The translations under genes and the position numbers were made by a program. From a virus: a stretch of 64,000 bases of DNA. Below the pieces are notes generated by a model. The model made no database searches. It was not told the origin of the DNA and saw only the letters and a program-made list of their open reading frames with translations. How positions within the stretch are numbered: the stretch's first letter is position 1; every line of letters starts with the position of its first letter. The stretch lies in IMG/VR virus record IMGVR_UViG_3300008255_000115, positions 1-64,000 of that record; one strand, written 5' to 3'. Below are positions 5,152-37,963 of this stretch, in pieces.

Positions 5152-8100
5152 ATGTATAGAGAAAGAGATTACCCTATATCAATTCCAACATGGGAAGCAG
5201 GTGAATGGATTGAAGATACTATCTTTGAAACACAAGTACAATTTATAGAATATCTAAAAAACTTATTTAAAGAACCTGGAAAGTATGAATTTGATGAATC
5301 AGTAGTTCATTGGCAGGATCAATCAATGAATTATAATAAAATTGGTTATTACTGTCAACATCCTACAGGAACAAGAGACTTCATACAATATTGGAATGAT
5401 CAAAAAAATAAATCTAGAATAGGAGTTATATATAAATCTGGATCTAGGCAATGGTACTTAACAAGAGATTATTATTTTTGGTTAAACTTTCTACCTATAT
5501 TTGATAAAGAAAAAAATGAATATGATTTTCCACTTATATGGGATATTCAATATCACATGGCTCTTTATGAGTTATTAGCTGAATTAAATAATAAACATAG
5601 TGTTATACTAAAGAAGAGGCAAATTGCCAGTAGTTACTTTCATTGTGCTAAATTAACCAATTATTATTGGTTTGAAGAAGGAGCTAAACTTAAAATGGGA
5701 GCATCTCTTAAAGATTATATAAATCTTAAAGGATCTTGGAAAATGCTTAATGAATATTCTGATTTTCTTAATGAACATACAGCATGGATAAGACCTCATA
5801 ACCCAGGTAAAGTAGGAGATTGGGAACAAAAAATACAAAAAACAATAGGAGGTAGAGATATAACAGTAGGACTCAAATCAACAATGTCTTCTTATACTTT
5901 TGAAAAAGATGCTACATCAGGCGTAGGTGGGCCCTGTAGATATTTCTTTCATGAAGAAGCTGGTGTGGCACCTAAGATGGATGAGACATATGAATTTATG
6001 CGTCCTGCCTTACATTCAGGTATGATTACTACAGGAATGTTTATTGCAGCAGGTTCTGTTGGTGATTTAGATCAATGTGAACCTTTGAAAGAATTTATGC
6101 TTCATCCTGAAGAAAATGATTTTTTTGCTGTAGAATCAAACTTAATAGATGAAGAAGGTACATGGGGTAAGCATGGATTGTTCTTACCTGAACAATGGTC
6201 AATGCCACCATATATTGATGAGTTTGGAAATTCTATGGTTGAAGAAGCTTTAAAAGCAATTCATGAGCAAAGACTAAAATGGAAGAAAGATTTAGATCCT
6301 GGTAAGTATCAATTAAGAATTTCACAAAAACCCACAAATATAAGGGAAGCTTTTGCATATAGAAATGAAAGTAAATTTCCATTACACTTACTTACTAATC
6401 AACAAAGAAGAATTGAAGATAAACAATATCACGAAGAGCATATAAATTTGAAAAGAGGTACTGATGGTAAAAGTATTATAGTAACTAAGTCTAATAAAAC
6501 ACCAATTAGAGAATTTCCTATTAGGAAAAGTGAGACAGACAAAGAAGGAGTTATTGTTGTATGGGAAAGACCTGTAGTTAATCCTGAATTTGGAATGTAC
6601 TATGGATCTATAGATCCAGTAGCTGAAGGAAAAGCAGAATATATTGAAAATAATATTTATACACCAAAGGGTAAAGTAAAAATAAAAGATTTAAAAGTAG
6701 GAGATAAAGTAATAGGTTCTAATGGTAAACCTACATTAATAACTGGCATTTTTCCTCAAGGAAAAAAAGAATTATATAGAGTAACATTTAATGATGGTTT
6801 TAGTATTTTAGTATGCAAAGAACATTTATGGTCAGTAAGAGCCTCAGATAATGATAAAAAAGATAATCATGTATTATCTGTTGGGGATATGCTTGATGAA
6901 AATAAATTAATTAAAAGTCATGGTATAAATAGAAATTCTACAAAAGAATATACTACAAAAACTTTTTATAAAAAAGGTAATAATCAAAACAGATGGAAAA
7001 TACCAATTGTTAAACCTATTCATTTTAAAAAAACAAGTTTACCTATTGACTCTTATTTACTAGGATTATTATTAGGAGATGGGGGATTGTCAGGAAGATC
7101 TATAGTTTTTAGTACAGCGGATAAGGAATTATTAAGATATATAAGAAATATATTACCTGAAACTATTAATATAAAGTATATTGGTCAATATGATTATAGA
7201 TTAAGTAGTACACTATCTAGAAATACATTAACTCAAAAATTAAGAAAACTGAATTTAGTAGGTAAAAAATCAGGAACTAAATTTATTCCTGATATATATT
7301 TAAAAGGAACAATAGAAGATAGATTAAAGCTTATTCAAGGCTTGATGGATACAGATGGTTATTGTGGAAATAATGGTGCAGAATACTATAGTATATCAAA
7401 AGACTTAGCTTATGGGATGGTGGAATTATGTCATTCATTAGGAGGATTAGCAAAAATCAGAAAAAAAATTACAAACAGAAAAAAAAGAAATGGAGTAGGT
7501 TATGTTTATGTAGTAAGAGTTATTTTACCTCCACAATTTATTCCATTCAAATTAAAAAGAAAAGCTGATATTTATAAACCTACAAAAAACTTTACAAGAT
7601 ATATATCTAATATAGAATTTGAAAAAATAGATGAGGCTATTTGCATTTCTGTAGAAGCTGAAGATAATTTATATGTTACAGAAAATGCAATTGTCACACA
7701 TAATACAACCACTTCAGATTCTTTATGTTCAATTTATATTTATAAAAATACAGTAGAGATTTCTAAACCTGATGAAAATGGTAATATGAAAACCCATGTA
7801 GAAGGTGGTAAAATAGTAGCAACATGGTGTGGAAGATTTGATGATATTAATCTTACACATGAAAGACTAGAGTTACTAATAGAATGGTATAATGCATGGA
7901 CAGTAGTAGAAAATAATATTTCTTTATTTATACAACATATGATTGCTCAAAGGAAACAAAAATATTTGGTTCCAAAAGATCAGATATTATTCTTAAAAAA
8001 TGTTGGTGCTAATAAAGCAGTATATCAAGATTATGGATGGAGAAATACTGGTACTCTATTTAAGAACCACATGATATCTTATGCAATTGAATTTCTGAAA

Positions 8101-8436
8101 GAAAAAATGGACATACAATATAATGATAATGGGGAACTACTAGGTATAGTATATGGAGTAGAAAGAATACCTGATATAATGCTTCTTAAAGAAATGTCTG
8201 AATATAGAGATGGTCTAAATGTGGATAGACTGGTTGCCTTTGCAGCATTAGTTGCTTTTGTAAGAATACAGGAATCTAACAAAGGATATAAGCGTGTAGT
8301 GGAATATGAAGATACTAAAAGCTTGGAAAAGTCCAAAAAAATGTTTAAATTAAGTAAGAGTCCCTTCACTAATATTGGAACAACTAAAAAAGGTTTTGGT
8401 AAAAGAAGTAGAAGTGGTTTTAAAAATATACACTAA
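5152..8436 (+). CDS. terL: terminase large subunit (intein-containing; about 737 aa after splicing)
   Basis: Walker A-like LKKRQIASS, Walker B YFFHEEAG, RNase H nuclease YYGSIDP; directly upstream of the portal gene. Confidence 0.92.
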   Translation: MYRERDYPISIPTWEAGEWIEDTIFETQVQFIEYLKNLFKEPGKYEFDESVVHWQDQSMNYNKIGYYCQHPTGTRDFIQYWNDQKNKSRIGVIYKSGSRQWYLTRDYYFWLNFLPIFDKEKNEYDFPLIWDIQYHMALYELLAELNNKHSVILKKRQIASSYFHCAKLTNYYWFEEGAKLKMGASLKDYINLKGSWKMLNEYSDFLNEHTAWIRPHNPGKVGDWEQKIQKTIGGRDITVGLKSTMSSYTFEKDATSGVGGPCRYFFHEEAGVAPKMDETYEFMRPALHSGMITTGMFIAAGSVGDLDQCEPLKEFMLHPEENDFFAVESNLIDEEGTWGKHGLFLPEQWSMPPYIDEFGNSMVEEALKAIHEQRLKWKKDLDPGKYQLRISQKPTNIREAFAYRNESKFPLHLLTNQQRRIEDKQYHEEHINLKRGTDGKSIIVTKSNKTPIREFPIRKSETDKEGVIVVWERPVVNPEFGMYYGSIDPVAEGKAEYIENNIYTPKGKVKIKDLKVGDKVIGSNGKPTLITGIFPQGKKELYRVTFNDGFSILVCKEHLWSVRASDNDKKDNHVLSVGDMLDENKLIKSHGINRNSTKEYTTKTFYKKGNNQNRWKIPIVKPIHFKKTSLPIDSYLLGLLLGDGGLSGRSIVFSTADKELLRYIRNILPETINIKYIGQYDYRLSSTLSRNTLTQKLRKLNLVGKKSGTKFIPDIYLKGTIEDRLKLIQGLMDTDGYCGNNGAEYYSISKDLAYGMVELCHSLGGLAKIRKKITNRKKRNGVGYVYVVRVILPPQFIPFKLKRKADIYKPTKNFTRYISNIEFEKIDEAICISVEAEDNLYVTENAIVTHNTTTSDSLCSIYIYKNTVEISKPDENGNMKTHVEGGKIVATWCGRFDDINLTHERLELLIEWYNAWTVVENNISLFIQHMIAQRKQKYLVPKDQILFLKNVGANKAVYQDYGWRNTGTLFKNHMISYAIEFLKEKMDIQYNDNGELLGIVYGVERIPDIMLLKEMSEYRDGLNVDRLVAFAALVAFVRIQESNKGYKRVVEYEDTKSLEKSKKMFKLSKSPFTNIGTTKKGFGKRSRSGFKNIH
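6634..7704 (+). mobile_element. class-3 (Ala1, WCT) intein with LAGLIDADG homing endonuclease, 357 aa
   Basis: GK|AEYIENNIYTPKG...CKEHLW...LLGLLLGDG...IQGLMDTDG...AICISV...IVTHN|T. Confidence 0.9.
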
Positions 8437-12619: not shown

Positions 12620-14236
12620 ATGGCAACTCCAGTATTGAATAATGGGATTTTCTTGAGAGACACGCAATATAATGCAAGTTCTCACGTTGACTCATATCAC
12701 TTGGTGAACATGTTAAAAGATGCAGATCCTATGGACTTAGGTCCAGTAGATATTTGGGCTATGGCTCAAAAAGTAGAAATGCCTCTTTATCAAATGAGTT
12801 CATTTGGTGGTAAAAATGTAATCATGGTAAACAATCACCGTGGTGAGTATAAATGGCAGACTCCAATATCACAGGATCTTCCTTATATCATTGAAGATAT
12901 AGAACCAGATAATGAGCGTAAAGGTCAGGATGGTACTACATTCAAGATCAAACTTAACAAACGTGAGTTTGGACATGGTGATATCATTACTTATGACAAA
13001 TATAATGGTTATGAGTTATACATTACTGATGAAGATATTCTTCCTATTGGAGATGGCTTTATTTATACAGTACGTCTAGTAAATAATGATAATGTTAAAT
13101 ACTTAGATAACAAGTACCTTAGAGAAGGAATGAAGTACTTCAGAAAAGGTTCTGCTAGAGGTGAATATGGAGAGAGATTCTCTGACATTATTACTGGTTC
13201 AGGATTCAGAGAATTCTACAATTATGTAGGTGGTGCAGAAGCTCATGTTCATTATTCTATCTCTTCAAGAGCAGATATGATGATTAAAGGTGGAATGAAA
13301 GCAGATGGAACAGTACCTGTTACTGAAATCTGGAGAAACTTTGATAAGAATGTTAATCCTTCAGTTGCATCTTTAGAAGGTTTAGTTTCTACAATGGGTA
13401 AATCATATGTTAAAAAAGCAATGGAAAATGGTTCTCTATCAAGAAGTTTCTTAACTTCATTAGAGGCTGCTCACTTGAGTAAAATTGCTAATGATATTGA
13501 GACTTACTTAATGTGGGGACATGGTGGTAAAATCCGTCAAGATGGTCCAGATGATTTAAGATTATCTGTAGGTCTTTGGAAACAATTAGATAACTCATTC
13601 AAAAGAGTATATAATAAAGGTAATTTTAATCTTGATTTATTCAAATCTGAACTTTATAACTTCTATCAAGGAAGAGTTGAGTTCAATGGTCCAGACCCAA
13701 AAAGACAATTGATTGTTCAAACAGGTATTGGAGGAATGAAGCTAGTAAATGAAGCTATCAAGTTAGAAGCTAATGCTGCTGGTCTTGTAATTCAAGCTGA
13801 TGATATTGGAGCTATTACAGGTAAAGGTATGGATCTTGGATTTGGATTTGCTTACACTAGCTATGTAATACCTTTCTTAGCAAATGTTAAGTTTGTACTT
13901 AATCCAGCATTTGATAATTTACATACTAATGATATTGAGAATCCTATCATTGATGGTCATCCTCTAAGTTCATATAGTTTTGTAATTTTTGATATTACTG
14001 ATACAGGTAATGATAACATATTCTTATTAAAACTTGATTGGGATAATGCTTTAAAATGGTGGTATCAAAATGGTACTATGGATTACATGGGTAGAACTCA
14101 AGGATTCCAATCTTCAGGTCAGTTTAATGGTTACAGAGTTATGATGACTCAAGTTATGCCAGCAATCTGGGTTAAAGATCCAACTAAAGTTCTTAAAATT
14201 GTAATGAGAAATCCTATTACAGGAGGTTCATTCTAA
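12620..14236 (+). CDS. major capsid protein (crAss-like)
   Basis: 538 aa; position; YLMWGHGG...GLWKQLD segment typical of HK97-fold capsids; followed by stem-loops. Confidence 0.85.
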   Translation: MATPVLNNGIFLRDTQYNASSHVDSYHLVNMLKDADPMDLGPVDIWAMAQKVEMPLYQMSSFGGKNVIMVNNHRGEYKWQTPISQDLPYIIEDIEPDNERKGQDGTTFKIKLNKREFGHGDIITYDKYNGYELYITDEDILPIGDGFIYTVRLVNNDNVKYLDNKYLREGMKYFRKGSARGEYGERFSDIITGSGFREFYNYVGGAEAHVHYSISSRADMMIKGGMKADGTVPVTEIWRNFDKNVNPSVASLEGLVSTMGKSYVKKAMENGSLSRSFLTSLEAAHLSKIANDIETYLMWGHGGKIRQDGPDDLRLSVGLWKQLDNSFKRVYNKGNFNLDLFKSELYNFYQGRVEFNGPDPKRQLIVQTGIGGMKLVNEAIKLEANAAGLVIQADDIGAITGKGMDLGFGFAYTSYVIPFLANVKFVLNPAFDNLHTNDIENPIIDGHPLSSYSFVIFDITDTGNDNIFLLKLDWDNALKWWYQNGTMDYMGRTQGFQSSGQFNGYRVMMTQVMPAIWVKDPTKVLKIVMRNPITGGSF

Positions 14237-26124: not shown

Positions 26125-26805
26125 ATGGCAACAACAATTGGATATACAGTATCAAGAGTAAGAAATAGTATGAAGGCTGTAAAAGAAGATGCCTTTGTAA
26201 CAGATAGATATTTATGGAGTGTTATTACAAAATATGCTAAATTATTTATAAAGCGTCAGGATAATCAAGATAAACTTTTAAGATTTAAAAGCTTTTGGAA
26301 AACTCTTCCTTGTGTTGAATTAACTGAAGTAGACAAAATAGAAGCTTGTTGTGGTATTACATCAGGATGTACTATTATGCGTACAAAGGATAAACTACCT
26401 ACACCTTTTGAGGGACCTTTTGGTCCCATGTTTAGAACAGTATCATCAGTAGATGTGTCTCAAGAAATATATCCAACTGAACCTGGAACATATAGTTCTA
26501 TGAGTAAAACAACTACTTTCAAGTATAACAAAAGTAAATACTACTGGTGGTTAAATGGTTATATGTATTTTCCAAATATTCCTTGGGATGCTATTAGAAT
26601 TGAAGGAGTATTTGAAGATGATATTAATCAATTTGCATGTGATGGAAAAGATGCTGCAGGTGAATGTACACTTAAGCAAGATCAAGAAACTAATATTCCT
26701 GATGATCTATTTGCAGAAATAGAAAAACAAGTATTAGCAGAAATATTACCACAAACTCAATTACCTCCAGATAATACAGATAATAAACAAAATCAATTTA
26801 GATAA
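26125..26805 (+). CDS. tail ring/tubular structural protein
   Basis: Ring-protein layout (N-terminal helices, YYWWLNGYMY, IEGVFED, C-terminal helix); position. Confidence 0.55.
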   Translation: MATTIGYTVSRVRNSMKAVKEDAFVTDRYLWSVITKYAKLFIKRQDNQDKLLRFKSFWKTLPCVELTEVDKIEACCGITSGCTIMRTKDKLPTPFEGPFGPMFRTVSSVDVSQEIYPTEPGTYSSMSKTTTFKYNKSKYYWWLNGYMYFPNIPWDAIRIEGVFEDDINQFACDGKDAAGECTLKQDQETNIPDDLFAEIEKQVLAEILPQTQLPPDNTDNKQNQFR

Positions 26806-26807
26806 AA

Positions 26808-27749
26808 ATGGCACATAATAACTACTCTCTACGCTATAAGACCTTTGATCAATTATTTGAAGAGGTTACTGTAGACTTTAAAAACTATGCTTTAGAAGGT
26901 GCAATTAATCCTCATACCTTACTTAAGGTAGCTAGGAAATGCAACTATGACTTAGGTTTTAGAATATATAGAACTAGACAAGCTGTACTAGAAGTTGAGC
27001 ATGGTAAAATAAGAATGCCGGATGATTTTCATATATTAAACTTTGCTGTAGTATGTGGAGAATATACAATAACAGAAGCTCTTCCACAAGGAACTCATAT
27101 TGAAGAAAGACTAGTGGCCCCAAATTATGTATGTGAACCAGGTCAGCCAAGCAACTGCTCAACACCCGCACCTGACCCTTGTAATGATCCAGTAGATCCT
27201 TGTAATAATTTAGATCCGTGTACAGGAACATGTATTACAAAATGTGGGGATGAATATCAAATAATACAAAAAATACATACTAGAACATGTACATATAAAC
27301 AAATGTATCCATTATATATTACAGATAATGAAAAGGTACAATGTGAGTGTCCTAACACAATGTGGAAAGGTGCTTTCAATGAAGCACGTATAGAAAATGG
27401 ATGGCTTATAACAAACTTTGAAACAGGAAAAGTTTATATAAACTACATGGGAGACATGATAGATGATGATGGTAATATTATGGTACCAGATCATGAAATG
27501 ATAAATGAGTACTATGAGTATGCTTTAAAAGAAAGAATACTAGAAAACTTAGTCATGAATGGAGAAAATGTAGGAGACAGATATACATTAATTGCTCAGA
27601 AATTAAGAGCTGCTAGAAATAATGCTCTTACAATTGTAAATACTCCTAACTTTAGTGAACTCAAGAAATTATGGGAAGTAAATAGAAAAGCACAGTACCA
27701 TAATTATTATAACATGTTTAAGTCATATTGGCCTTTAAGCTATAAATAA
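26808..27749 (+). CDS. tail tubular (ring) protein with Cys/Pro-rich insertion
   Basis: Directly upstream of the muzzle gene; TNFETGKVYINY...DDDGNIMVPD; insert DPCNDPVDPCNNLDPC. Confidence 0.6.
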   Translation: MAHNNYSLRYKTFDQLFEEVTVDFKNYALEGAINPHTLLKVARKCNYDLGFRIYRTRQAVLEVEHGKIRMPDDFHILNFAVVCGEYTITEALPQGTHIEERLVAPNYVCEPGQPSNCSTPAPDPCNDPVDPCNNLDPCTGTCITKCGDEYQIIQKIHTRTCTYKQMYPLYITDNEKVQCECPNTMWKGAFNEARIENGWLITNFETGKVYINYMGDMIDDDGNIMVPDHEMINEYYEYALKERILENLVMNGENVGDRYTLIAQKLRAARNNALTIVNTPNFSELKKLWEVNRKAQYHNYYNMFKSYWPLSYK

Positions 27750-27760
27750 GAATACATAAA

Positions 27761-30700
27761 ATGGCTAAGAAAAGAAAAGTACCAAGTCCAACAAACATTG
27801 AAACTAGATCATTTCAAAAAGGAATGGTTAAAAATCTCAATGATTCTATCATTCCAGATGGGGCATATTTACATGCAAGAAATGCTATAAATAATTCACA
27901 GATTGGTGACCTAGGAGTTATTGGTAATGAGCCTTCTAATAAGTTTTGTGCTAATGCTCCCTATACAATTATCGGTACTATTCATATGTATGGAGATATA
28001 TGGGCAATTATGTCAACAGATAATACTAATTCAGAAATTGGTTCCTTTGATGAGAGCTCATGTACATATACTACAATAGTTAATGATCCATGTTTAGGTT
28101 TTAAAAAAACCAATCCAATACTTGGAGGAGAAGCTAAAGAAAATTCTGATTGTACATGGCAAGTATACTTTGCAGATAATCTTAATCCAGATAGAAGTAT
28201 CAACATGAATAAGCCACCATGGATACAAAATTGTATTAATATAGATGGATGTATAGAATGTACAGATACTAAAAGTTTAGATTGTGAAAGATTACGTATG
28301 GCAAGACTAACAAGTATGCCATGCTTAAGAATAGAACAAGCATCAAATGGTGGAGAACTATTAAATGGAACTTACCAAGCAGTTATTGCATATACAGAAA
28401 ATGAACAGAGGATAACAGATTATTCAATACCTTCTAATATAGTTTCTTTGTTTGATCATAATAATGTAAATGGTTCTTTAGATATTATTATTGAATCCAT
28501 AGATCAAACATATGATGAATTTGAGTTAGTAGTTATAGGATTTGTAAATCAACAACTTGTAGCACGTAGAATAGGAATTTATTCTACACATCAAGGAAGA
28601 ATAAGCTTAGATAAAATAGATCCTAAATTACCAGCAGTTCCATTACAGTTTATTCCTATTGATAGACCTTCCTATGAGAGATCAGAAGGTATATATAGAA
28701 ATGGTGAGTATTTAATAAGAGTTGCTCCAACAAGTAGATTTAGTTTTAATTATCAACCTATAGCTAATAATATAATTACAAAATGGGTTTCTGTAGAATA
28801 CCCAGAAGATTACTATCGTAAAGCAGGAAGTGATATTGGTTATATGAGAGATGAAGTGTATCCTTTTTTTATTAGATGGATATATAATACTAATGATAAA
28901 TCTGAATCATATCATATACCTGGAAGACCTCCTATGATTCATCAAGTTTCTCAAATTTTTGAAACATCAGGATCATCTTCTCCAGCTTATGGTTCAGGAT
29001 TGTACTTTGAAGAATTCAATACAGCTACACAAACATCAGGAGTAGGTGGAACAACATCTAATGGTGGACAGATTATTGGTAAAGGATTGATGAGTTATTG
29101 GGAATCATCAGAATTATATCCTGATAATAAACCTGATGTATGGGGTAATCTATGTGGTCAGCCTATCAGACATCATAAAATGCCTGATGCTAGTTCAGTA
29201 CCAGGAGCAGGTCAACACTTTTCTTCCAATGGTACTATAAAAGTATTAGGAGTAGAGTTTAGTAATATTGCGCCACCTGTTGATAACAATAATATACCAA
29301 TACCTGGAATCATAGGTTATGAAATATTAAGAGGATCTAGAGAGGGAAATAAAACAGTAATAGCTAAAGGCTTACTTAATAATATGGGAGCATATGATAG
29401 AGCAGATAATAATGGAATAGCTTATTACCAGAATTATCCTTATAATGATTTAAGGACAGATCCTTTTTTAAATGCTACTGATTTTATTACAGGGGATAAT
29501 GATAATCAACCAGGTAAACCACATCTAGGAGGGCTTTTAATGCAACGTGATAAGTTTACTTTCCATTCACCTGATACACAATTTAAACATCCTTTCTTAT
29601 CTGCTAAGGAAGTTAAAATATATGAAACACAAGCTGGTCCTGTAGAAGGAGTATTTGTTGAACCTTATAAACATCCTGAACATAAACTTGTTACTGATAT
29701 GGCTTTTATATTAGCTGGATTAGTTGGTTTTGGTATTGCACTTAAATCTATTCAAGGTGTACCAAGAAGTACAAGAAAAACAGCTAGTGTTGATGAATCA
29801 ATTTTTGTAGGACCTGCGGGAACCAATGGTGCTGGTGTAGCTATTGGTATTGCTGCAGCCATACCCCATCAAGCAGCATTAGCTATTGAAAATGCTGCTA
29901 CAATTAGTGGATCTAATGCTTTACTTGCATTAACAACAGGAACAACTGGTGAAATGACACCAGGTAATATTGCAAGTTATGTTACCCAATTATTTACAGC
30001 AAATGTGCAAGGAGTAAGTCAAACAGGTTCTACTGAATTTAGTACAACAGGTGAAACAGGTATGCCCTTTCCATTAGCAATGGCTCAAGCCATACCAACC
30101 TTCTTAGCTTACTGGTCAGAAGGAACACAAGCTTTTATAGATATTATACAAGCTATGAGTAGAAAACATCAGTATGCATTAGCATATCAATCTCATGCTT
30201 TTCATAGAAATACTATTACAAATAATAGTGGATTCAGAGCTGGTATAAATAATTCAAGTTACATTAGTGACAAACTTCAAGAATTTGGAGGTATAACAGT
30301 TAATAATTTATATAGGGGTGCTTGTGTAGCTTTAACTACAAATAGTAATGTCCCAGACCCAGCTGTCCAAGATACATCAAGACAGACTTTTAAACAAGCT
30401 TTTGGTAATACTGTATTATCAAGTAACATAGATAAAAAACGTATTATAGGAAATGCAAGTTCTCATTATGTTGGATTAAAACAAAGAATAAGAAATCAAT
30501 ATGGTCAAATAGATGGGATAAAACAAGTACCAACAGGATCTTGTATGCAAAATCTTACAGTAGATCCATCTGATCCAAACAAATATATTTCAGATGTTAT
30601 ATTTGGAGGAGATATTTATATAGGTAGATATACTGAAAAGAATACTTTCTTTTATTTTTTTGATTGGCTTCTTGATCTTCCAGATGAATTTGAGTATGAC

Positions 30701-32602
30701 TACCGTCTTAGAAAAATGATGCCTTATCCTACTTATTGGATGGATACACATGACTTTCAAGTAAGTGATTTCTTAACAGGTATATTTGATACACTATTTA
30801 ATGTCGGAGGTGCTGGTATATTACCTACATCTTGGCATAATTTTGATACAACAGGTAACTTTGGATTTTCTACTTTATTACCTAGTAATCCTACAAATCC
30901 TGTAGCAGCACTTCAACTAATGAAATTTATAGTTAAAGAGGCATACATGTATTTATTTAACTCAGGAGTTAGAGATTTTTATGTAGAGTCAGAAGTTAAT
31001 ATAGCATATAGAGATTGGGGAGAAGAACCTACTCAAAAACATTATGATCCTTTTTCAAATACTTCTTTAGAAGACTTGTTTAGAGCTGATAGAGTTAGAT
31101 CTAATAATTTTTTCAAGTATGATTACTCATTGTCTACATCTAGATATTATCAAGGATACCCTAGTTGGGGTTCTATGCAATATAGAAACTATGATCCCTT
31201 AATTGCAGAGACTTGTTATACACATTATCCAAATAGAGTTATTTATTCTTTACCTCAAAATAAAGAGTTAAGATATGATAACTGGTTAGCTTATTTAATT
31301 AATAATTACAAAGATTTTACAAGTAGAGTTACAACTATAAAACCTATTGGTAAAAATGGAGCTATGATATTATTTCAAACAGAAGCTCCATCCCTCATAC
31401 CTGGAGTAGATGTTTTAGAAACAGAAAGTGGAACTAAAATAACAATAGGTGATGGTGGTTTATTTAGTCAACCATTACAAAACTTGGTTAATACTGATGA
31501 TTCATATGAATATGGATCTTGTCAAGACAGACTTAGTGTAATTAATACACCTGCTGGATTATTTTGGATTTCACAAAATCAAGGTAAGATATTTAATTAT
31601 ACAGGAACTTTAGAAGACATATCTCAACAAAATATGAAATGGTGGTTTGATGAATTCTTACCATATAAAATTTTAGAAGACTTTCCTAATTTCCAATTAA
31701 CAGATAATACTATAATAGGTGTAGGTTGTCAGTCTATTTATGATAATAGTTATGGATTAATTTATTTTACTAAGCGTGACTTTAAATTAAGATATGAGTA
31801 CATAGGGCAAGTTAGTTATCTAGGAGATGATAATTTCTTAATAGGAAGAGCTGGTATAGCTAAACTAGGAGATCCTAGATATTTTGATGATGCTTCTTGG
31901 ACAATATCATATGATCCTAAATCTAAATCATGGGTATCATTTCATGATTGGCATCCAAATTTTATGATGCCTTCTAAGAATAATTTCTTAACAATTGCGA
32001 ATAGAGGAATTTGGAAACACAATGATAGATCAGATAGTTTCTGTAATTATTATGGTCAAAACTATCCTTTTGAAGTAGAACTAGTTACACCTACTGGCCA
32101 AACTGTTAATACACTTAAATCAATTGAATATCAGATGGAAGTATTTCAGTGGGGTCTAAATGGTATAGATAGAAATCATGTATTAGATTTTAATTTTGAT
32201 AGGGTGGTAGTTTATAATACTGAACAAATATCAGGAGAACTGAGATTAAACATATCTCCTAAAAATAATGCTCCAGATATGTTAAACTACCCAAGAGTTA
32301 ACCCTAGTAGTATAGACATATTATATTCTAAAGAAGAACAGAAATATAGATTTAACCAGTTCTGGGATATAACAGATGATAGAGGAGAATTTACAAATGC
32401 TAGAAGAATGATGTGGGAAACAGAACCTAATGGTTATGTAAAAAGTATTAATCCTTTATATGTAAACTACAATAAACCATTACATCAAAGAAAAAAATTC
32501 AGACACTATCAGTCTAATTTATTATTGAGAAGACAAGTATCAGGTCCTCATAATATGATGTTAAAATTAGTAAACAGTAAAAATCAGTATTCAGCAAGAT
32601 AA
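27761..32602 (+). CDS. tail stabilization / muzzle (nozzle) protein
   Basis: 1613 aa; F-x-KGM-x-x-N...ARNAI N-terminus, GYMRDEVY, FGGDIYI, WTISY...W-x-SFHDW beta-propeller motifs. Confidence 0.75.
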   Translation: MAKKRKVPSPTNIETRSFQKGMVKNLNDSIIPDGAYLHARNAINNSQIGDLGVIGNEPSNKFCANAPYTIIGTIHMYGDIWAIMSTDNTNSEIGSFDESSCTYTTIVNDPCLGFKKTNPILGGEAKENSDCTWQVYFADNLNPDRSINMNKPPWIQNCINIDGCIECTDTKSLDCERLRMARLTSMPCLRIEQASNGGELLNGTYQAVIAYTENEQRITDYSIPSNIVSLFDHNNVNGSLDIIIESIDQTYDEFELVVIGFVNQQLVARRIGIYSTHQGRISLDKIDPKLPAVPLQFIPIDRPSYERSEGIYRNGEYLIRVAPTSRFSFNYQPIANNIITKWVSVEYPEDYYRKAGSDIGYMRDEVYPFFIRWIYNTNDKSESYHIPGRPPMIHQVSQIFETSGSSSPAYGSGLYFEEFNTATQTSGVGGTTSNGGQIIGKGLMSYWESSELYPDNKPDVWGNLCGQPIRHHKMPDASSVPGAGQHFSSNGTIKVLGVEFSNIAPPVDNNNIPIPGIIGYEILRGSREGNKTVIAKGLLNNMGAYDRADNNGIAYYQNYPYNDLRTDPFLNATDFITGDNDNQPGKPHLGGLLMQRDKFTFHSPDTQFKHPFLSAKEVKIYETQAGPVEGVFVEPYKHPEHKLVTDMAFILAGLVGFGIALKSIQGVPRSTRKTASVDESIFVGPAGTNGAGVAIGIAAAIPHQAALAIENAATISGSNALLALTTGTTGEMTPGNIASYVTQLFTANVQGVSQTGSTEFSTTGETGMPFPLAMAQAIPTFLAYWSEGTQAFIDIIQAMSRKHQYALAYQSHAFHRNTITNNSGFRAGINNSSYISDKLQEFGGITVNNLYRGACVALTTNSNVPDPAVQDTSRQTFKQAFGNTVLSSNIDKKRIIGNASSHYVGLKQRIRNQYGQIDGIKQVPTGSCMQNLTVDPSDPNKYISDVIFGGDIYIGRYTEKNTFFYFFDWLLDLPDEFEYDYRLRKMMPYPTYWMDTHDFQVSDFLTGIFDTLFNVGGAGILPTSWHNFDTTGNFGFSTLLPSNPTNPVAALQLMKFIVKEAYMYLFNSGVRDFYVESEVNIAYRDWGEEPTQKHYDPFSNTSLEDLFRADRVRSNNFFKYDYSLSTSRYYQGYPSWGSMQYRNYDPLIAETCYTHYPNRVIYSLPQNKELRYDNWLAYLINNYKDFTSRVTTIKPIGKNGAMILFQTEAPSLIPGVDVLETESGTKITIGDGGLFSQPLQNLVNTDDSYEYGSCQDRLSVINTPAGLFWISQNQGKIFNYTGTLEDISQQNMKWWFDEFLPYKILEDFPNFQLTDNTIIGVGCQSIYDNSYGLIYFTKRDFKLRYEYIGQVSYLGDDNFLIGRAGIAKLGDPRYFDDASWTISYDPKSKSWVSFHDWHPNFMMPSKNNFLTIANRGIWKHNDRSDSFCNYYGQNYPFEVELVTPTGQTVNTLKSIEYQMEVFQWGLNGIDRNHVLDFNFDRVVVYNTEQISGELRLNISPKNNAPDMLNYPRVNPSSIDILYSKEEQKYRFNQFWDITDDRGEFTNARRMMWETEPNGYVKSINPLYVNYNKPLHQRKKFRHYQSNLLLRRQVSGPHNMMLKLVNSKNQYSAR

Positions 32603-32603
32603 T

Positions 32604-33461
32604 ATGGCACTAAATAAATTTATATCAACACAAGGATATAAGTCAGATAGTCCTGATAAAAACAATCCTTATAATATTATTCCTTCTGGTAGAATAACTA
32701 TGAAGGATGTACCTCATCCTGTATATGGTGTAGACAATTTAGGGAATGAACAGATTATGTATCCTGGACAAGAATATATTTTTCCAGGAAATCAAGTAAC
32801 TGAAATTCCAATAGGTTATCATAGAATGCCAGATGGTTCTATAATGTCAGATGAAGAGCATCAAGAAATGCAAGAAGGAGGGCAAGCTTACAATGATAGC
32901 TTATCTATACATAAATGGGGAGAATCAAACTATAAAAGATTTCAAGAAAAACCTATGATGGAAAATTGGACATCAGGAGGTTTTGGAATGCCTTATAATA
33001 TATTTGAAGCATTTAACAGATTAGAAGAACTTAATAATTCTCAATATGATCCTTCAGAAACAATCCATGGTAAACTTAATTTTAAAGATGGTAGTTCTGG
33101 TGAAGCAGGTGTAAATAGATATCCTAAACCTATGGGTAATAAAAGACCATATCAAAAACCAATGACTCATATTCCTTCTAAAGAAATAACTAATGAATAT
33201 CAATCTCTTAATATTAATACTACAAAAAGAGAAGGTATACCAACTCCTCCCTTACGTAGTATAATTGGATATACTCAAAAATGGGATTCAGAACAAAAGA
33301 AGTGGATTCAAGAACCTATTACTCAAATTATTCCTAAGCCTTCAGTGAATTATACATCTGGTGGAAATATTCCACCACAAAAAGACTATGAAGAGGTTGA
33401 GTTAACTGATGAGCAAATAGCAGATTTACGTGTAAAAGGGTATAGAGTAGACATATTATAA
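32604..33461 (+). CDS. putative internal cargo protein
   Basis: IPSGRITMK...MYPGQEYIFPG module, xxxGG motifs, C-terminal ELTDEQI-x6-GY module; no Cys. Confidence 0.55.
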   Translation: MALNKFISTQGYKSDSPDKNNPYNIIPSGRITMKDVPHPVYGVDNLGNEQIMYPGQEYIFPGNQVTEIPIGYHRMPDGSIMSDEEHQEMQEGGQAYNDSLSIHKWGESNYKRFQEKPMMENWTSGGFGMPYNIFEAFNRLEELNNSQYDPSETIHGKLNFKDGSSGEAGVNRYPKPMGNKRPYQKPMTHIPSKEITNEYQSLNINTTKREGIPTPPLRSIIGYTQKWDSEQKKWIQEPITQIIPKPSVNYTSGGNIPPQKDYEEVELTDEQIADLRVKGYRVDIL

Positions 33462-33510
33462 ACTTCTAAAGTTTATAAAGTTAAATAAAAATTTAGTATA
33501 TTATAGTATA
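33460..33510 (+). promoter_or_regulatory. phage promoter motif with palindrome
   Basis: AAACTT-cta-AAGTTT, then TTTAGTATATTATAGTATA (19/19 identical to 25582-25600). Confidence 0.75.
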
Positions 33511-33521
33511 AGATATTAGCT

Positions 33522-35093
33522 ATGAAAAAAAAATGTAGATTATATAAACCAAGTTCAATGCAATATGGTGGTCAGTCTAATGATAAATTTACCATGACAC
33601 AAGACTCACAAACGGACCCAATACCACAAGAAAGAGCTAATGAGTTTCTGCTATGGTTAAGGAAGACTACACAAGAGAAGAAGTTGACTGAAGAGTTAGA
33701 AGCAATGGATGCTTTAAACAATAATTTTGCTAAGAGAAGTAATACTATACAACAAAATGCAATTGAGGATTTTCAGATTGGTGGTTCAATCCCTGCTTTA
33801 GGAGCACAAACTAATAATTTCAATACTCATTTAGCTTATGGAGGTAATCTCACTGAAGACACTAACAAAGAAAACATAAAACCTTATGATGATCCTAGTT
33901 TTTGGCAAGGCATAAATACCTATGATGATATGATAGCAAAGTTTGATGGATGGGCTAAATTAGGAATAGTAAAAGATAAAGAATTATATGATGCAGCAAC
34001 TAAATATACAGGTTTAGTATGGGAACAAAATCCAACATCAACAACAGGTACTGATTGGATCCCTGTTCAATCAACAAATAATATTAAACCTCAAAAACCT
34101 AAATTTGAAAATGAAAATCCACAATTTAGAGAAAATCCTGAAACTGGTAAATTAGAACAAAGGAGAGTTAGACCTAGTACAGGTGAGGAATATTGGGTAG
34201 CAAGTAATCCAACTATGGCTGGTCAATATTATAAAAATGCAATAAATCAAGGTAATCCTAATATAAAATTATCAGGTAGAGAAGGAGTAATGAGAGATAT
34301 GCAACTTAATCCTGAAAATATTACTACAGATTATAATAAACCTATTCCTCAAATAACAGAAGCACCAGCTTCAGAAGAAGGAATTATTTCTAATTTAGCA
34401 TATGGAGGTAATCTAGATTATATGCAGAAGAGAGACTCAAATCTACAATTTTTTCAGGATGCTTATAATCAAAGTAATCCAAATATTATGAAAAACTTAC
34501 AATCATTTACAGGTACTATGCCTAAAGCACAAAAAGGACTTAGTTATCCAGGTAATATGCAGTTATTACCTGAAATAGATGAACTAACTAGGGAGGATGT
34601 GTTAAGAATGATGGAAGAAAATGATCCTAAAGTTATGGATCCTACGCAATATCAGAATGAATCTATTCAAGAATTTGAACCAGGAAGTACTGAAGATCCT
34701 TTCAATAAAAATAAGAGAACTAATGATAGAGGAAATTATGGCAGCACAGGAATGGATCCAAGAAATACTAACATGGCTCAAGGTATGATTGCTGGAATGA
34801 GAGTAGGAGAAGGTATTTTTAATTACAAAAATAGAGCTGAAGAAGAACAGGAACTAAGAAAAAGATTTTCCAATGTATTTGAAACCCATGGAATAGCAGG
34901 ACAAGATAGAGGTGATTATATGGTTAATGTTCCAGGAATAGGAGATCCATTAAAACCTGATCAACATACAAGAATGGGATACAATACAAAAATAGCTCAA
35001 GATGGTTTAGAAGTTGATCAAGAACTTGAATTAACAGATGAACAAATTAATGAGTTAATAACACAAGGTTATAATATAGAATATTTAGACTAA
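33522..35093 (+). CDS. putative internal cargo protein (largely disordered)
   Basis: MQYGG, FQIGG, LAYGG x2, AQKGL, AQDGL; C-terminal ELTDEQI-x6-GY module. Confidence 0.6.
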   Translation: MKKKCRLYKPSSMQYGGQSNDKFTMTQDSQTDPIPQERANEFLLWLRKTTQEKKLTEELEAMDALNNNFAKRSNTIQQNAIEDFQIGGSIPALGAQTNNFNTHLAYGGNLTEDTNKENIKPYDDPSFWQGINTYDDMIAKFDGWAKLGIVKDKELYDAATKYTGLVWEQNPTSTTGTDWIPVQSTNNIKPQKPKFENENPQFRENPETGKLEQRRVRPSTGEEYWVASNPTMAGQYYKNAINQGNPNIKLSGREGVMRDMQLNPENITTDYNKPIPQITEAPASEEGIISNLAYGGNLDYMQKRDSNLQFFQDAYNQSNPNIMKNLQSFTGTMPKAQKGLSYPGNMQLLPEIDELTREDVLRMMEENDPKVMDPTQYQNESIQEFEPGSTEDPFNKNKRTNDRGNYGSTGMDPRNTNMAQGMIAGMRVGEGIFNYKNRAEEEQELRKRFSNVFETHGIAGQDRGDYMVNVPGIGDPLKPDQHTRMGYNTKIAQDGLEVDQELELTDEQINELITQGYNIEYLD

Positions 35094-35103
35094 AATTATT
35101 ATT

Positions 35104-37905
35104 ATGAGAAAAGTCAGAATAAAAGGTTTACCAAAAGCTGGTCATGGTGGTTCTTCATCAGGTAGTTCTAATGGCTTAAGTAAATTTACAAATAGTAAAT
35201 CAGGAACAAATCCATTTTCTGAACCAAACTTTGAAGTTAATAAAACTATCAAAGCAGTAGATCCTTCTCAAGCAAATATTGAAGCAGAAGGTGGGGAACA
35301 AGCTGTTGTTCCTGGTCAAGGTGGTATCCCAGAATCTTATAAAATATCTGGACCAAGACATAGTGGTGGTGGAGTACCTTTAAACTTAGCTCCAGATTCT
35401 TTTATTTTTAGTGATCATAAGAAAGAAATGAAAATAAAAGACAAAGATATCTTAGCTGAATTTGGTATGAGTGTTCCAAAAAAAGGGAAAGTAAAAGGAT
35501 ATACTCCTGCTGAGATTGCTAAGAAGTATGATATTAATGAATACAAGAAAATATTACTTGATCCTAACTCAGACAAAATTGCCCGTGAGACAGCTGAGAA
35601 AATGATACAGAACTACAATATGAAACTAGGAAAACTAGCTTTAGTTCAAGAATCAATGAAAGGATTTCCACAAGATATTCCAGCAATTGCTATGCCTTAT
35701 TTAGAAAGCATCAATGCAGACCCTAATCAATTTGTGCCACAAGAAGTACAACAACCTCAACAAGCTAATTTTGGAGCAGAGATTAAAAGTCAAAACAACA
35801 TTATGGCTAAAAGATTTCCAGGATTAGATGTAAAGCAAAGAGGTGGTCAATTTAATGGAGCATTCTGGGATAGTATATTACAAGATGGTGGTCCAGTTGA
35901 TGAAACACAATATCAAACTGCAGATGACTATGCTGCTTCTCAAATACAAATTTCTAACTATGATAATGAGCCTGCTCCAAAAGTTTTAACTCAAGATCAG
36001 ATTACTCTTATATATGGAACTAAAGAAGAGAAAATAGCATTACTTGATAAATTAAAATATGATGCAGAAGCTGCAGGTTTAGATGAGAATGCTTACATCA
36101 CTGAGACTGTAAAAAACATGACATGGGAAGAGATAGAACGTGCAGAAAAACATATGCAAGGATTTCCTATAAAAAGTCTTAAAAAAGAACTAGAGTGGGA
36201 AGCTAATCAATTAAAAAAACAAGCTGGTATTGAAACTAAACCTGAGCAAACAATAGGGGACAAAGTAAAAACTGTAGAAAAGCCTACATATAAAACTCCT
36301 AAAGATGCAATTATTCATGAAGAGAATGATGAATATGATGAAGCCAAAGTAAAAAAAGGAGAATATGTCAGAAGAAAAGATGGCAAATTATATCAAGCTA
36401 CAGGTAAAGTTTTCTCTGATTTTGAATATAAACAACTAGATAACATTCCTGAGAAGCATAGAGATGCTTATTCAAGAAGTTATGCATTACTAGAAAAAAC
36501 ATTAACAGATCCTGAAAACAAAGAACTTACTGATAAGCTTTATGAAAATTATAAAGATAGAATATCTAAGGGTAAAATAGATAAAAATAGAAAAGAGAAA
36601 TTAATGAATCTTCCTAAAGAAGAAGTAATTAAAAATCTTATGAAAGCTCAAGAACAGATCTATGCAATTAACACACATGCTGCAGAAGATCCTGAGTTAT
36701 TAAAAAGACTTGAATCCGGAGCTATGGATTCTAAATATAAAAAAGATCCTGTAACAGGAAAGACATATGGTAAAAATGAAGCATATAGAGATATTGCTAA
36801 AAGTCTTGGTTACAGTGATGAAGATCTTTTATCAGATGATGAAATTACTATATTTCAAGGAGCTTATCAAGGATTATTAGATTTGTCAAAAGACCCTAAA
36901 TACAAAGATAAAGTAGAAAACTTTAATTTAAAACCTGTTGGTATAGATGATCAAGATTGGGAAGGAGGTAAATCTATTTCACATGTAGATGGTTGGTTTG
37001 GTAATACAACAATTGGCCAAGCAGTTACTGCCAAGGAAGATAAAATGGCTTTTAAAGAAGCTGAAATAGAAGCTAAGAAAGATGCAGCAAGACAAGGTGT
37101 AAATCCTCAGTATATAGAACAAACAATGGATGCTCCATGGTGGGCTCAAGATGTAGGTAACATGGCTTTATCTGTAGCTGAAAGAGCTCAGTTAAAAAAA
37201 TATTTACCTCATTCTCAACCTATTGATCTTGCAAAACCTGATGTGTTATATTTTGATCCATCAAGAGCTTTAGCAGCCAATGCAGAACAAGCTAATATAG
37301 CTGCTCAAACTATTGGTTCATTTGCTGGACCACAAGGAACATCTAGATTAACAGGAATACAAGGGCAAGCTTTTGCACAAGCTGCAAATACACTTGCTGA
37401 TTATGAGAATAAAAATGTTGGTGTAGGAAATCAGTACTTACATAATGTACAACAAACCCTTAATCAAGAGTCCTTAGCAAATAATGAACGTATGCAGAGA
37501 TTATATGATCAGACTACAATTGCTAATCAACAATTTGATAACTCTAAAACTGCATCCAACAGAAATATATTTGATGCTTGGAGTAATGGTATAACTAATG
37601 CAGCAGAAACACAATCTCTTAACATGCTATATCCCCAAGTCAATGTAGATCCTTCTACTGGAGGTAGAACAGGATTTACCAACGGAAGACCATTAACAGG
37701 ACAAAGATCATCAGGTACTAGTGATGAAGAATATTTTGCTGAAATTTCTAGACTCAAGAAAAAATATGAAGATTTAGATGAAAAAACTATAATAGCAAGA
37801 GTTGCTCCTAAATATGGAAAAGGTGGAGGAACCTTTAATAAAAACAATAGAGAAAATCTAAAACGCTTTGTTGAAGACCAAAGAGGTTTAAAACAAAGAA
37901 AGTAA
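35104..37905 (+). CDS. putative internal cargo/ejection protein
   Basis: NIEAEGGE...GPRHSGGGV...FIFSD module; Q/A/N-rich helical C-terminus; no Cys seen. Confidence 0.6.
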   Translation: MRKVRIKGLPKAGHGGSSSGSSNGLSKFTNSKSGTNPFSEPNFEVNKTIKAVDPSQANIEAEGGEQAVVPGQGGIPESYKISGPRHSGGGVPLNLAPDSFIFSDHKKEMKIKDKDILAEFGMSVPKKGKVKGYTPAEIAKKYDINEYKKILLDPNSDKIARETAEKMIQNYNMKLGKLALVQESMKGFPQDIPAIAMPYLESINADPNQFVPQEVQQPQQANFGAEIKSQNNIMAKRFPGLDVKQRGGQFNGAFWDSILQDGGPVDETQYQTADDYAASQIQISNYDNEPAPKVLTQDQITLIYGTKEEKIALLDKLKYDAEAAGLDENAYITETVKNMTWEEIERAEKHMQGFPIKSLKKELEWEANQLKKQAGIETKPEQTIGDKVKTVEKPTYKTPKDAIIHEENDEYDEAKVKKGEYVRRKDGKLYQATGKVFSDFEYKQLDNIPEKHRDAYSRSYALLEKTLTDPENKELTDKLYENYKDRISKGKIDKNRKEKLMNLPKEEVIKNLMKAQEQIYAINTHAAEDPELLKRLESGAMDSKYKKDPVTGKTYGKNEAYRDIAKSLGYSDEDLLSDDEITIFQGAYQGLLDLSKDPKYKDKVENFNLKPVGIDDQDWEGGKSISHVDGWFGNTTIGQAVTAKEDKMAFKEAEIEAKKDAARQGVNPQYIEQTMDAPWWAQDVGNMALSVAERAQLKKYLPHSQPIDLAKPDVLYFDPSRALAANAEQANIAAQTIGSFAGPQGTSRLTGIQGQAFAQAANTLADYENKNVGVGNQYLHNVQQTLNQESLANNERMQRLYDQTTIANQQFDNSKTASNRNIFDAWSNGITNAAETQSLNMLYPQVNVDPSTGGRTGFTNGRPLTGQRSSGTSDEEYFAEISRLKKKYEDLDEKTIIARVAPKYGKGGGTFNKNNRENLKRFVEDQRGLKQRK

Positions 37906-37911
37906 ATCTCT

Positions 37912-37957
37912 AAACTTTAGAAGTGTAAAAAAATAAATATATTTTATGTAACTTAGC
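37912..37957 (+). promoter_or_regulatory. palindrome plus possible -7 box
   Basis: AAACTT-tag-AAGTgT, then TAACTTAG (TAnnTTTG-like). Confidence 0.4.
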
Positions 37958-37963
37958 AAAATT

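Follow-up and report, generated by a model that had tools for sequence, protein, structure and literature searches.

Matched terminal motifs on consecutive cargo proteins of crAss-like phages as a candidate docking pair

Beta-hairpin docking in polyketide synthases and non-ribosomal peptide synthetases (PKS/NRPS) uses short matched elements at the C- and N-termini of consecutive polypeptides, which follow gene order and use an electrostatic code; where the polypeptides are fused, a simple linker takes their place. Here we describe two terminal motifs, an acidic C-terminal module and a basic N-terminal strand, on consecutive cargo proteins encoded in positions 1 to 64,000 of the viral record IMGVR_UViG_3300008255_000115 of IMG/VR, and discuss them as a candidate docking pair. 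This whole stretch of 64,000 nucleotides (nt) is called the window below, and it belongs to an uncultured crAss-like phage.

Two phages offer the closest described virion proteins. In the pre-ejectosome of cyanopodophage A4, gp27 inserts its C-terminal helix into a cleft of gp26, a disulfide between Cys1715 and Cys5 fixes the contact, and the authors propose a chain reaction on ejection (PMC12002296). The virion cargo of crAss001 comprises C1 (gp45), C2 (gp46) and polymerase-associated giants; gp45 has a portal-bound domain at residues 425-552, its preceding 424 residues reach into the tail barrel and short gp45 segments bind ring and portal proteins, while the loading and ordered release of about 5 MDa of cargo protein in crassviruses is an open question (PMC10172136). 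The cargo genes of the window occupy the position where crAss001 encodes C1, C2 and the polymerase-associated giants, and three of their products, A, B and C, carry the motifs treated here. In the literature on docking of Crassvirales cargo proteins we found no description of the module-strand pair.

Module and strand in the window

Cargo protein A, with 285 amino acids (aa), is encoded by the open reading frame (ORF) at 32604-33461 and ends ...EEVELTDEQIADLRVKGYRVDIL, and cargo protein B (523 aa, 33522-35093) ends ...QELELTDEQINELITQGYNIEYLD. The N-terminus of B reads MKKKCRLYKPSSMQYGG and that of cargo protein C (933 aa, 35104-37905) reads MRKVRIKGLPKAGHGG, the start codon of C being located 10 nt past the stop codon of B; B thus has an N-strand and a C-module on one protein. 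A and B are similar solely in their C-terminal 23 residues, of which 12 are identical (pairwise E 1e-4 by BLASTP). An earlier note on this DNA had claimed that one acidic module closes two otherwise dissimilar proteins and that the gene after each starts with a similar basic strand, and both statements hold, all four termini being in place. Neither motif is present in cargo proteins D to G. A six-frame motif scan of the window found the module at the C-termini of A and B only, and the whole 99-kb record contains exactly two copies.

The matches were also scored with leave-out profiles, for which 59 junctions from loci other than the window were used; the search covered every six-frame segment of the window, 686 in total. 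The module profile recovers copy 1 (DYEEVELTDEQIADLRVKGYRVDIL-COOH, 33384-33458, predicted strand-helix-strand) with E 9.2e-6 and copy 2 (DQELELTDEQINELITQGYNIEYLD-COOH, 35016-35090) with E 4.6e-9, and its next-best segment has E 0.62. With the N-strand profile the basic strand of B (MKKKCRLYK, followed by an MQYGG motif, 33522-33572) scores E 0.012 and that of C (MRKVRIKGLPKA, followed by GHGG, 35104-35151) E 2.9e-6, the next-best segment being at E 3.1. The module and strand matches in the window go well beyond chance.

The module, about 25-28 aa long in A and B, is acidic (mean charge -5.9) and has the consensus YQEGGEYELTDEEIQQLLAQGYEIEYLD-COOH among the relatives. It is laid out as a strand E-x-E-L, an N-capped helix T/S-D-E-E-I-x-x-L, a Gly turn and a strand x-I-E-Y-L-D-COOH, and in the alignment one Gly is invariant and one Ile nearly so. 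The N-strand has about 10 residues and is amphipathic and basic (M-K/R-K/R-V-K/R-I-K-x-L-P-K-A, mean charge +4.1; alignment consensus M.RKV.IK.LPKA..G), and the protein following the module starts MKRKVRIKSLPKAQ.GG. Synonymous codons are mixed at conserved positions (GGT, GGA, GGG and GGC for Gly; ATT, ATA and ATC for Ile; GTA, GTT and GTC for Val), which indicates that the protein, rather than an RNA element, is under selection. None of the 66 module sequences searched has a Pfam family at threshold, the best being SutA-RBD with E 0.008 and DUF7210 with E 0.03, both below the cut-off, and the module profile gave only chance-level matches to EF-hand helices among PDB sequences.

A further motif, [YMF]-[QKA]-x-G-G, is found in the small cargo proteins (window 32604-37905, and the A-, B- and C-type proteins of loci L012-L091), where it is 2.7-fold enriched. 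These proteins contain 9.9 GG per 1000 residues, compared with 3.7 in the upstream structural proteins and 4.6 in the D protein. The GG motif brackets both elements, with YQEGG before the module and LPKAQxGG after the strand, in segments that are predicted to be disordered.

Distribution across relatives

The survey covers 91 related loci (given L numbers here), 80 of them viral contigs collected with the C-terminus of the muzzle protein as bait (muzzles 51-70% identical) and 11 collected with the N-terminal domain of A. Nearly all share the same layout, with the muzzle followed by at least one variable protein, a module-ended protein, a strand-started protein and a conserved MATYLQGVTDY protein, which is the counterpart of D in the window. 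Every module-ended protein (71 of 71) precedes a gene with a basic N-strand, 66 by profile and five, sub-threshold, by eye; whether this is always so had been proposed as a check in the earlier note. The same note had named independent distribution of the two motifs as the outcome that would refute docking, and this is not what is seen: the distinct adjacent ORF pairs comprise 66 with both motifs, five with the module only by threshold, seven with the strand only and 637 with neither, and copy numbers are matched, the number of terminal modules being equal to that of N-strands (0/0, 1/1 or 2/2) in 41 of the 45 distinct architectures. Upstream of the seven strand-only junctions there is a weak module in two cases and a protein with internal modules in the other five. 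The pair is confirmed as a family-wide feature.

The adjacency is kept in L053 and L082 despite a swapped order of the two strand types, and L070 and L085 have a third module-strand pair. The gap between the module gene and the strand gene is either -1 to +10 nt, with translational coupling, or a spacer of 57-61 nt with a promoter-like element. Read-through or recoding across the junctions was considered and is excluded, since both gap lengths and reading frames differ among relatives.

The pair is also present in a cultured cyanophage, Leptolyngbya phage Lbo-JY46 (PP438436), with a muzzle of only 31% identity, where a 674-aa protein ends ...LSPEEVAKLIELGYDFEVV and a 484-aa protein starts MKIRIIGLPKAQ; a literature search found no paper on this phage. 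The module is absent from crAss001, Cellulophaga phage phi4:1 and Flavobacterium phage FpV4, and the gut phage csAssE-Sib has a strand-like N-terminus only.

Docking and other readings of the pair

We favour, with a confidence slightly better than even, the reading that module and strand are a non-covalent head-to-tail docking pair, which would tie A and B to the N-terminus of C. The acidic module ending one protein would capture the basic strand starting the next, and the N-strand would add to the small sheet of the module and be followed by a disordered Gly-rich linker. Such docking had been proposed in the earlier note, and the proposal is carried by the joint distribution given above, by the loss of the pair in fusions, by charge co-variation, by the protein-level selection seen in codon use and by structure predictions of tethered termini, with the A4 contact between gp27 and gp26 as a structural precedent; other parts of the data oppose it and are gathered below.

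The fusions are best seen by comparing close relatives. In the split phage L028 the junction reads ...SFQMGG-FYEEGEEYDLTPEEIEELRAQGYELEQLD-stop, then MARVKIKRI-PQALSGLEVKM..., and in the fused relative L023 it reads ...YRTKFGGA-LPQALSGLEVKM... within a single 1296-aa protein. L054 is fused in the same way, L022 being a second split comparator, and exactly four elements are missing from the fused forms, namely module, stop, Met and basic strand, with the LPxA part retained. In fusions of the L037 type a B-like segment joins an internal MKRKVKITSLPQAGYGG directly and the module is absent. Conversely, behind internal modules of A-type proteins there is SVPxLTKAQKG or PKAQ.G, in which the N-motif has kept its tail but not its basic strand. 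If a peptide bond can take the place of the pair, fusions that lack both halves or one of them are what would be expected. The charges of the two motifs also vary together, with a Spearman coefficient of -0.35 between module and strand and of -0.42 between the last strand of the module and the N-strand (n=72, phylogeny ignored), and the three least acidic modules (L046, L088 and L048) are located upstream of the three least basic strands.

Structures were predicted with AlphaFold on tethers in which natural DNA was read through the stop codons, with the stops as Gly, so that module and strand lie on one chain. These tethers are artificial and imply no read-through, and a hairpin is favoured in any case when the linker is short or prone to form strands. 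In the A-B tether of the window (131 aa) the module is predicted as a strand at 27-32, a helix at 34-42 and a strand from 46, with a predicted local distance difference test score (pLDDT) of 93-94, compared with 89 for the N-strand of B and 65-76 for the linker. This linker is the translated conserved DNA spacer and is itself part of the hairpin, and the DSSP assignment, which places strands at 46-61 and 64-79 around a turn of two residues, implies an antiparallel pairing of RVDIL with KCRLY. The B-C tether of L057 (277 aa, seven-residue linker) has pLDDT 86-89 for the module and 86 for the N-strand, below 50 at residues 73-86 and then 95-98 in the globular domain of C. A disordered linker of about 35 residues precedes that domain in L057, and the low-confidence segment separates the N-strand from it, so that the strand is not part of the C domain and behaves as an element of its own, predicted as confidently as the module; we infer from the model that strand and module pair in this tether too. 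Neither tether model has a PDB match at E <=0.001 with Foldseek.

Several observations weigh against docking, and the hairpin-prone design of the tethers is one of them. The coincidence of module and strand across junctions has a Fisher p of 1e-78, but most junctions are orthologous, with one dominant cluster on each side, and this value overstates the number of independent events. Five junctions have the N-strand with no terminal module upstream, 17 strong copies of the module lie within unbroken proteins, and in several genomes the internal modules outnumber the strands by one. The module can thus be internal with no basic strand behind it. Finally, crAss001 gp45 has a similar basic N-terminus with no module upstream, so the strand may serve, or may earlier have served, some other function.

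The gp45 N-terminus and the internal modules are also what speaks for a different reading, in which the motifs are independent signals, each binding a third virion component (portal, tail-barrel rings, scaffold or DNA), and are adjacent merely as the ends of cargo modules; the binding of short gp45 segments to ring and portal proteins in crAss001 (PMC10172136) agrees with it. We consider this unlikely, for it leaves unexplained the exact double loss in the fusions, the matched copy numbers and the charge co-variation, and both motifs are missing from cargo proteins D to G. A shared capsid-targeting signal, offered as an alternative in the earlier note, fits poorly, since every protein with the module stands immediately before one that bears the strand, and as a general targeting signal it was rejected as the leading explanation because the other cargo proteins are without the module.

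The frequent changes in gene structure allow yet another reading, that the motifs are scars of gene fission with no role in binding. The module would then be a self-contained mini-domain closing a structural unit of a modular, polyprotein-like cargo, with genes breaking just after it, and the Lys/Arg-rich starts would reflect preferences of translation initiation in an AT-rich genome. Fused and split forms are indeed common, with giant ORFs of more than 2000 aa in L001-3, L020 and L034, AAA and AGA codons dominate the strand, and there is a second, unrelated type of conserved junction (GGWLDNL-COOH, then MTKEEILNG). However, the conservation of the strand extends beyond the basic residues to a hydrophobic V-x-I and the L-P-K-A tail, fusion removes the strand together with the module though the LPxA part stays, the charges co-vary, and the A-B junction keeps its pair across a 60-nt spacer with a promoter-like element of its own, which makes the scar reading rather improbable.

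Least of all do we credit the motifs as processing or expression signals, that is as cleavage sites of a maturation protease (flanking x-G-G) or as a termination-reinitiation element in the RNA. The enriched [YMF][QKA]xGG bordering both motifs and the many gaps of only -1 to +10 nt speak for this reading. Against it, no protease was found with Pfam in the structural block, gap lengths and frames vary, with neither read-through nor a fixed RNA element involved, and the synonymous codon variation indicates selection at the protein level.

The junctions of the relatives show further variation. The second junction type is found in L022, L028, L031, L032, L038, L040, L064, L076 and L081 and not in the window. 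There, ...GG(x)GWLDNL[ED] or ...GWLNKY closes the first protein and MTKEEILNGMSEEEFY..YPT or MTAAQMLKAAG opens the one after it, which suggests that matched end-pieces are of more than one kind. In L035 (11233-18009) and L036 (11236-11997) it is the upstream protein that ends in the basic strand (...GGSVRKVKIKSLPRNTQ-COOH), so the gene break can also fall past the strand. Genes for 165-258 aa are inserted between the cargo genes in L015, L016, L023, L026, L038, L054 and L055, and one such gene directly follows the muzzle in both phages with a fused B-C protein. Some of the products start MK.L.LTKG.VALVDDEDFYWLSQWNW and others resemble ..IYKITSPSGK.YIGQT; they appear to be homing endonucleases.

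Cargo block and comparison with known systems

The record of the phage is a 99-kb contig rated 83% complete; the window has about 30% G+C, and every gene is on one strand, here the plus strand. The order is capsid, ring 2, ring 1, muzzle and then the cargo genes, as in the virion module of Crassvirales. The four families of capsid, rings and muzzle in Pfam (PF23898, PF25702, PF24228 and PF25731) all score above their gathering thresholds. The crassvirus major capsid protein is encoded at 12620-14236, tail ring 2 at 26125-26805, tail ring 1 at 26808-27749 and the muzzle protein (1613 aa; PF25731 crAss_MUZ, E 3e-26), which marks the start of the cargo block, at 27761-32602. Downstream of C there is D (1347 aa), followed by three giant proteins. 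Further upstream, a 1094-aa ORF at 5152-8436, probably the large terminase by its position, has LAGLIDADG and Hint matches, which points to an intein.

Protein A has a conserved N-terminal domain (residues 7-70), a variable middle and the C-terminal module. The domain, encoded at 32622-32813, has the motif GYK.NSKDKNNPYNIIPSGNITM...PG..Y.FPG and is 65-70% identical in 11 viral contigs; it is shared with gp040 of Cellulophaga phage phi4:1, a virion protein verified by mass spectrometry, where it forms the N-terminus. In L004-L010, a different phage type with GroEL- and GroES-like genes, the domain is also found as a stand-alone protein of 80 aa. The conservation of B in relatives is limited to its last 110 aa or so, and a scan of viral contigs with B as query found no relative.

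The 60-nt spacer between A and B (33459-33521) contains a palindrome TAAACTTCTAAAGTTTA that overlaps the stop codon, followed by AAATTTAGTATATT, and it is kept in relatives. Every cargo-block spacer of 48-84 nt in the clade (L011-L090) opens with an AT-rich palindrome TAAACTT-TAT-AAGTTTA overlapping the stop, with a stem of 6-7 bp and a loop of 3-4 nt; AAATTTAnTATATT follows about 15-20 nt later, and the ATG about 20 nt beyond. There are about 60 distinct examples of this element, and the window has a less regular copy at 37903-37963. It is probably a conserved phage promoter, operator or other transcription signal.

Residues 1-220 of protein C are about 50% identical in nearly all loci, with a globular domain at approximately residues 37-205, and cultured phages gave no match to the region or to C by megablast and tblastn. 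BLAST finds no similarity between C and crAss001 gp45. With hhalign a segment of C (SFIFSD...M.I.D...TPA) aligns to gp45 479-510, weakly and within the noise of the method (probability 20%, pairwise E 1e-3). A VIA-align comparison of the C domain model with the portal-bound fragment of gp45 (residues 433-552, 7qog chain M) gives Z 5.1 and a root-mean-square deviation of 4.5 over 98 of 126 residues, where unrelated helical rows reach Z 5.4; it is the only VIA-align match that spans the whole C domain, and its register agrees with that of the hhalign match. Like gp45, C is located in the cargo block after the muzzle, and the basic N-terminus of gp45 followed by GG (MAKKKIKRRGKMPPNIFDTGG) resembles the N-strand start of C. 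On this basis we tentatively regard C as the counterpart of C1/gp45, with the portal-binding domain shifted to a place beside the N-terminus. The phage of the window differs from crAss001, in which A- and B-type proteins and the C-module are absent and the N-terminal 424 residues are within gp45 itself.

If the pair docks, A (285 aa) would be clipped onto B (523 aa), and B in turn onto C (933 aa), whose domain resembling the portal-binding one lies directly behind the strand and which would probably be bound to the portal. A and B would replace the tail-resident N-terminal part of gp45 as separate polypeptides kept in gene order, and the clipped A-B-C, placed in the virion at this site, might be co-packaged 1:1 and leave through the tail in order. 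This can be pictured as a non-covalent polyprotein thread of environmental crAss-like phages, in which a portable module of about 28 residues clips together separate N-terminal parts of C1 and gene order is the order of packing and ejection; we hold the picture to be possible, our confidence staying a little short of even. If it is true, the clip would account for the frequent fusion and fission of cargo genes, as evolution could freely add, remove or fuse cargo modules, and there would be a concrete, testable rule by which a single anchor protein is bound to the portal and carries the other proteins along in the order of their genes. The pair would also be a new and very small protein-protein connector that is genetically encodable and usable as a synthetic connector, and since Lbo-JY46 is cultured and has the pair, a bench test is possible.

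Compared with the ejection proteins of phage A4, the arrangement proposed here is alike in that the C-terminus of one protein meets the N-terminal region of the product of the neighbouring gene. It is unlike the helix in a cleft with its disulfide, being a predicted strand addition with charge complementarity, and there is no sequence similarity between the two. A cysteine pair is lacking at the A-B and B-C junctions, where the C-termini of A and B and the N-terminus of C have no Cys and B has Cys5 only. The likeness to PKS/NRPS docking domains drawn in the earlier note stands as far as matched ends that are lost on fusion (L023 and L054) are concerned and does not extend to homology. The carriers are phage virion proteins and not biosynthetic enzymes, the arrangement of the fold differs, and what the two systems have in common is a functional analogy.

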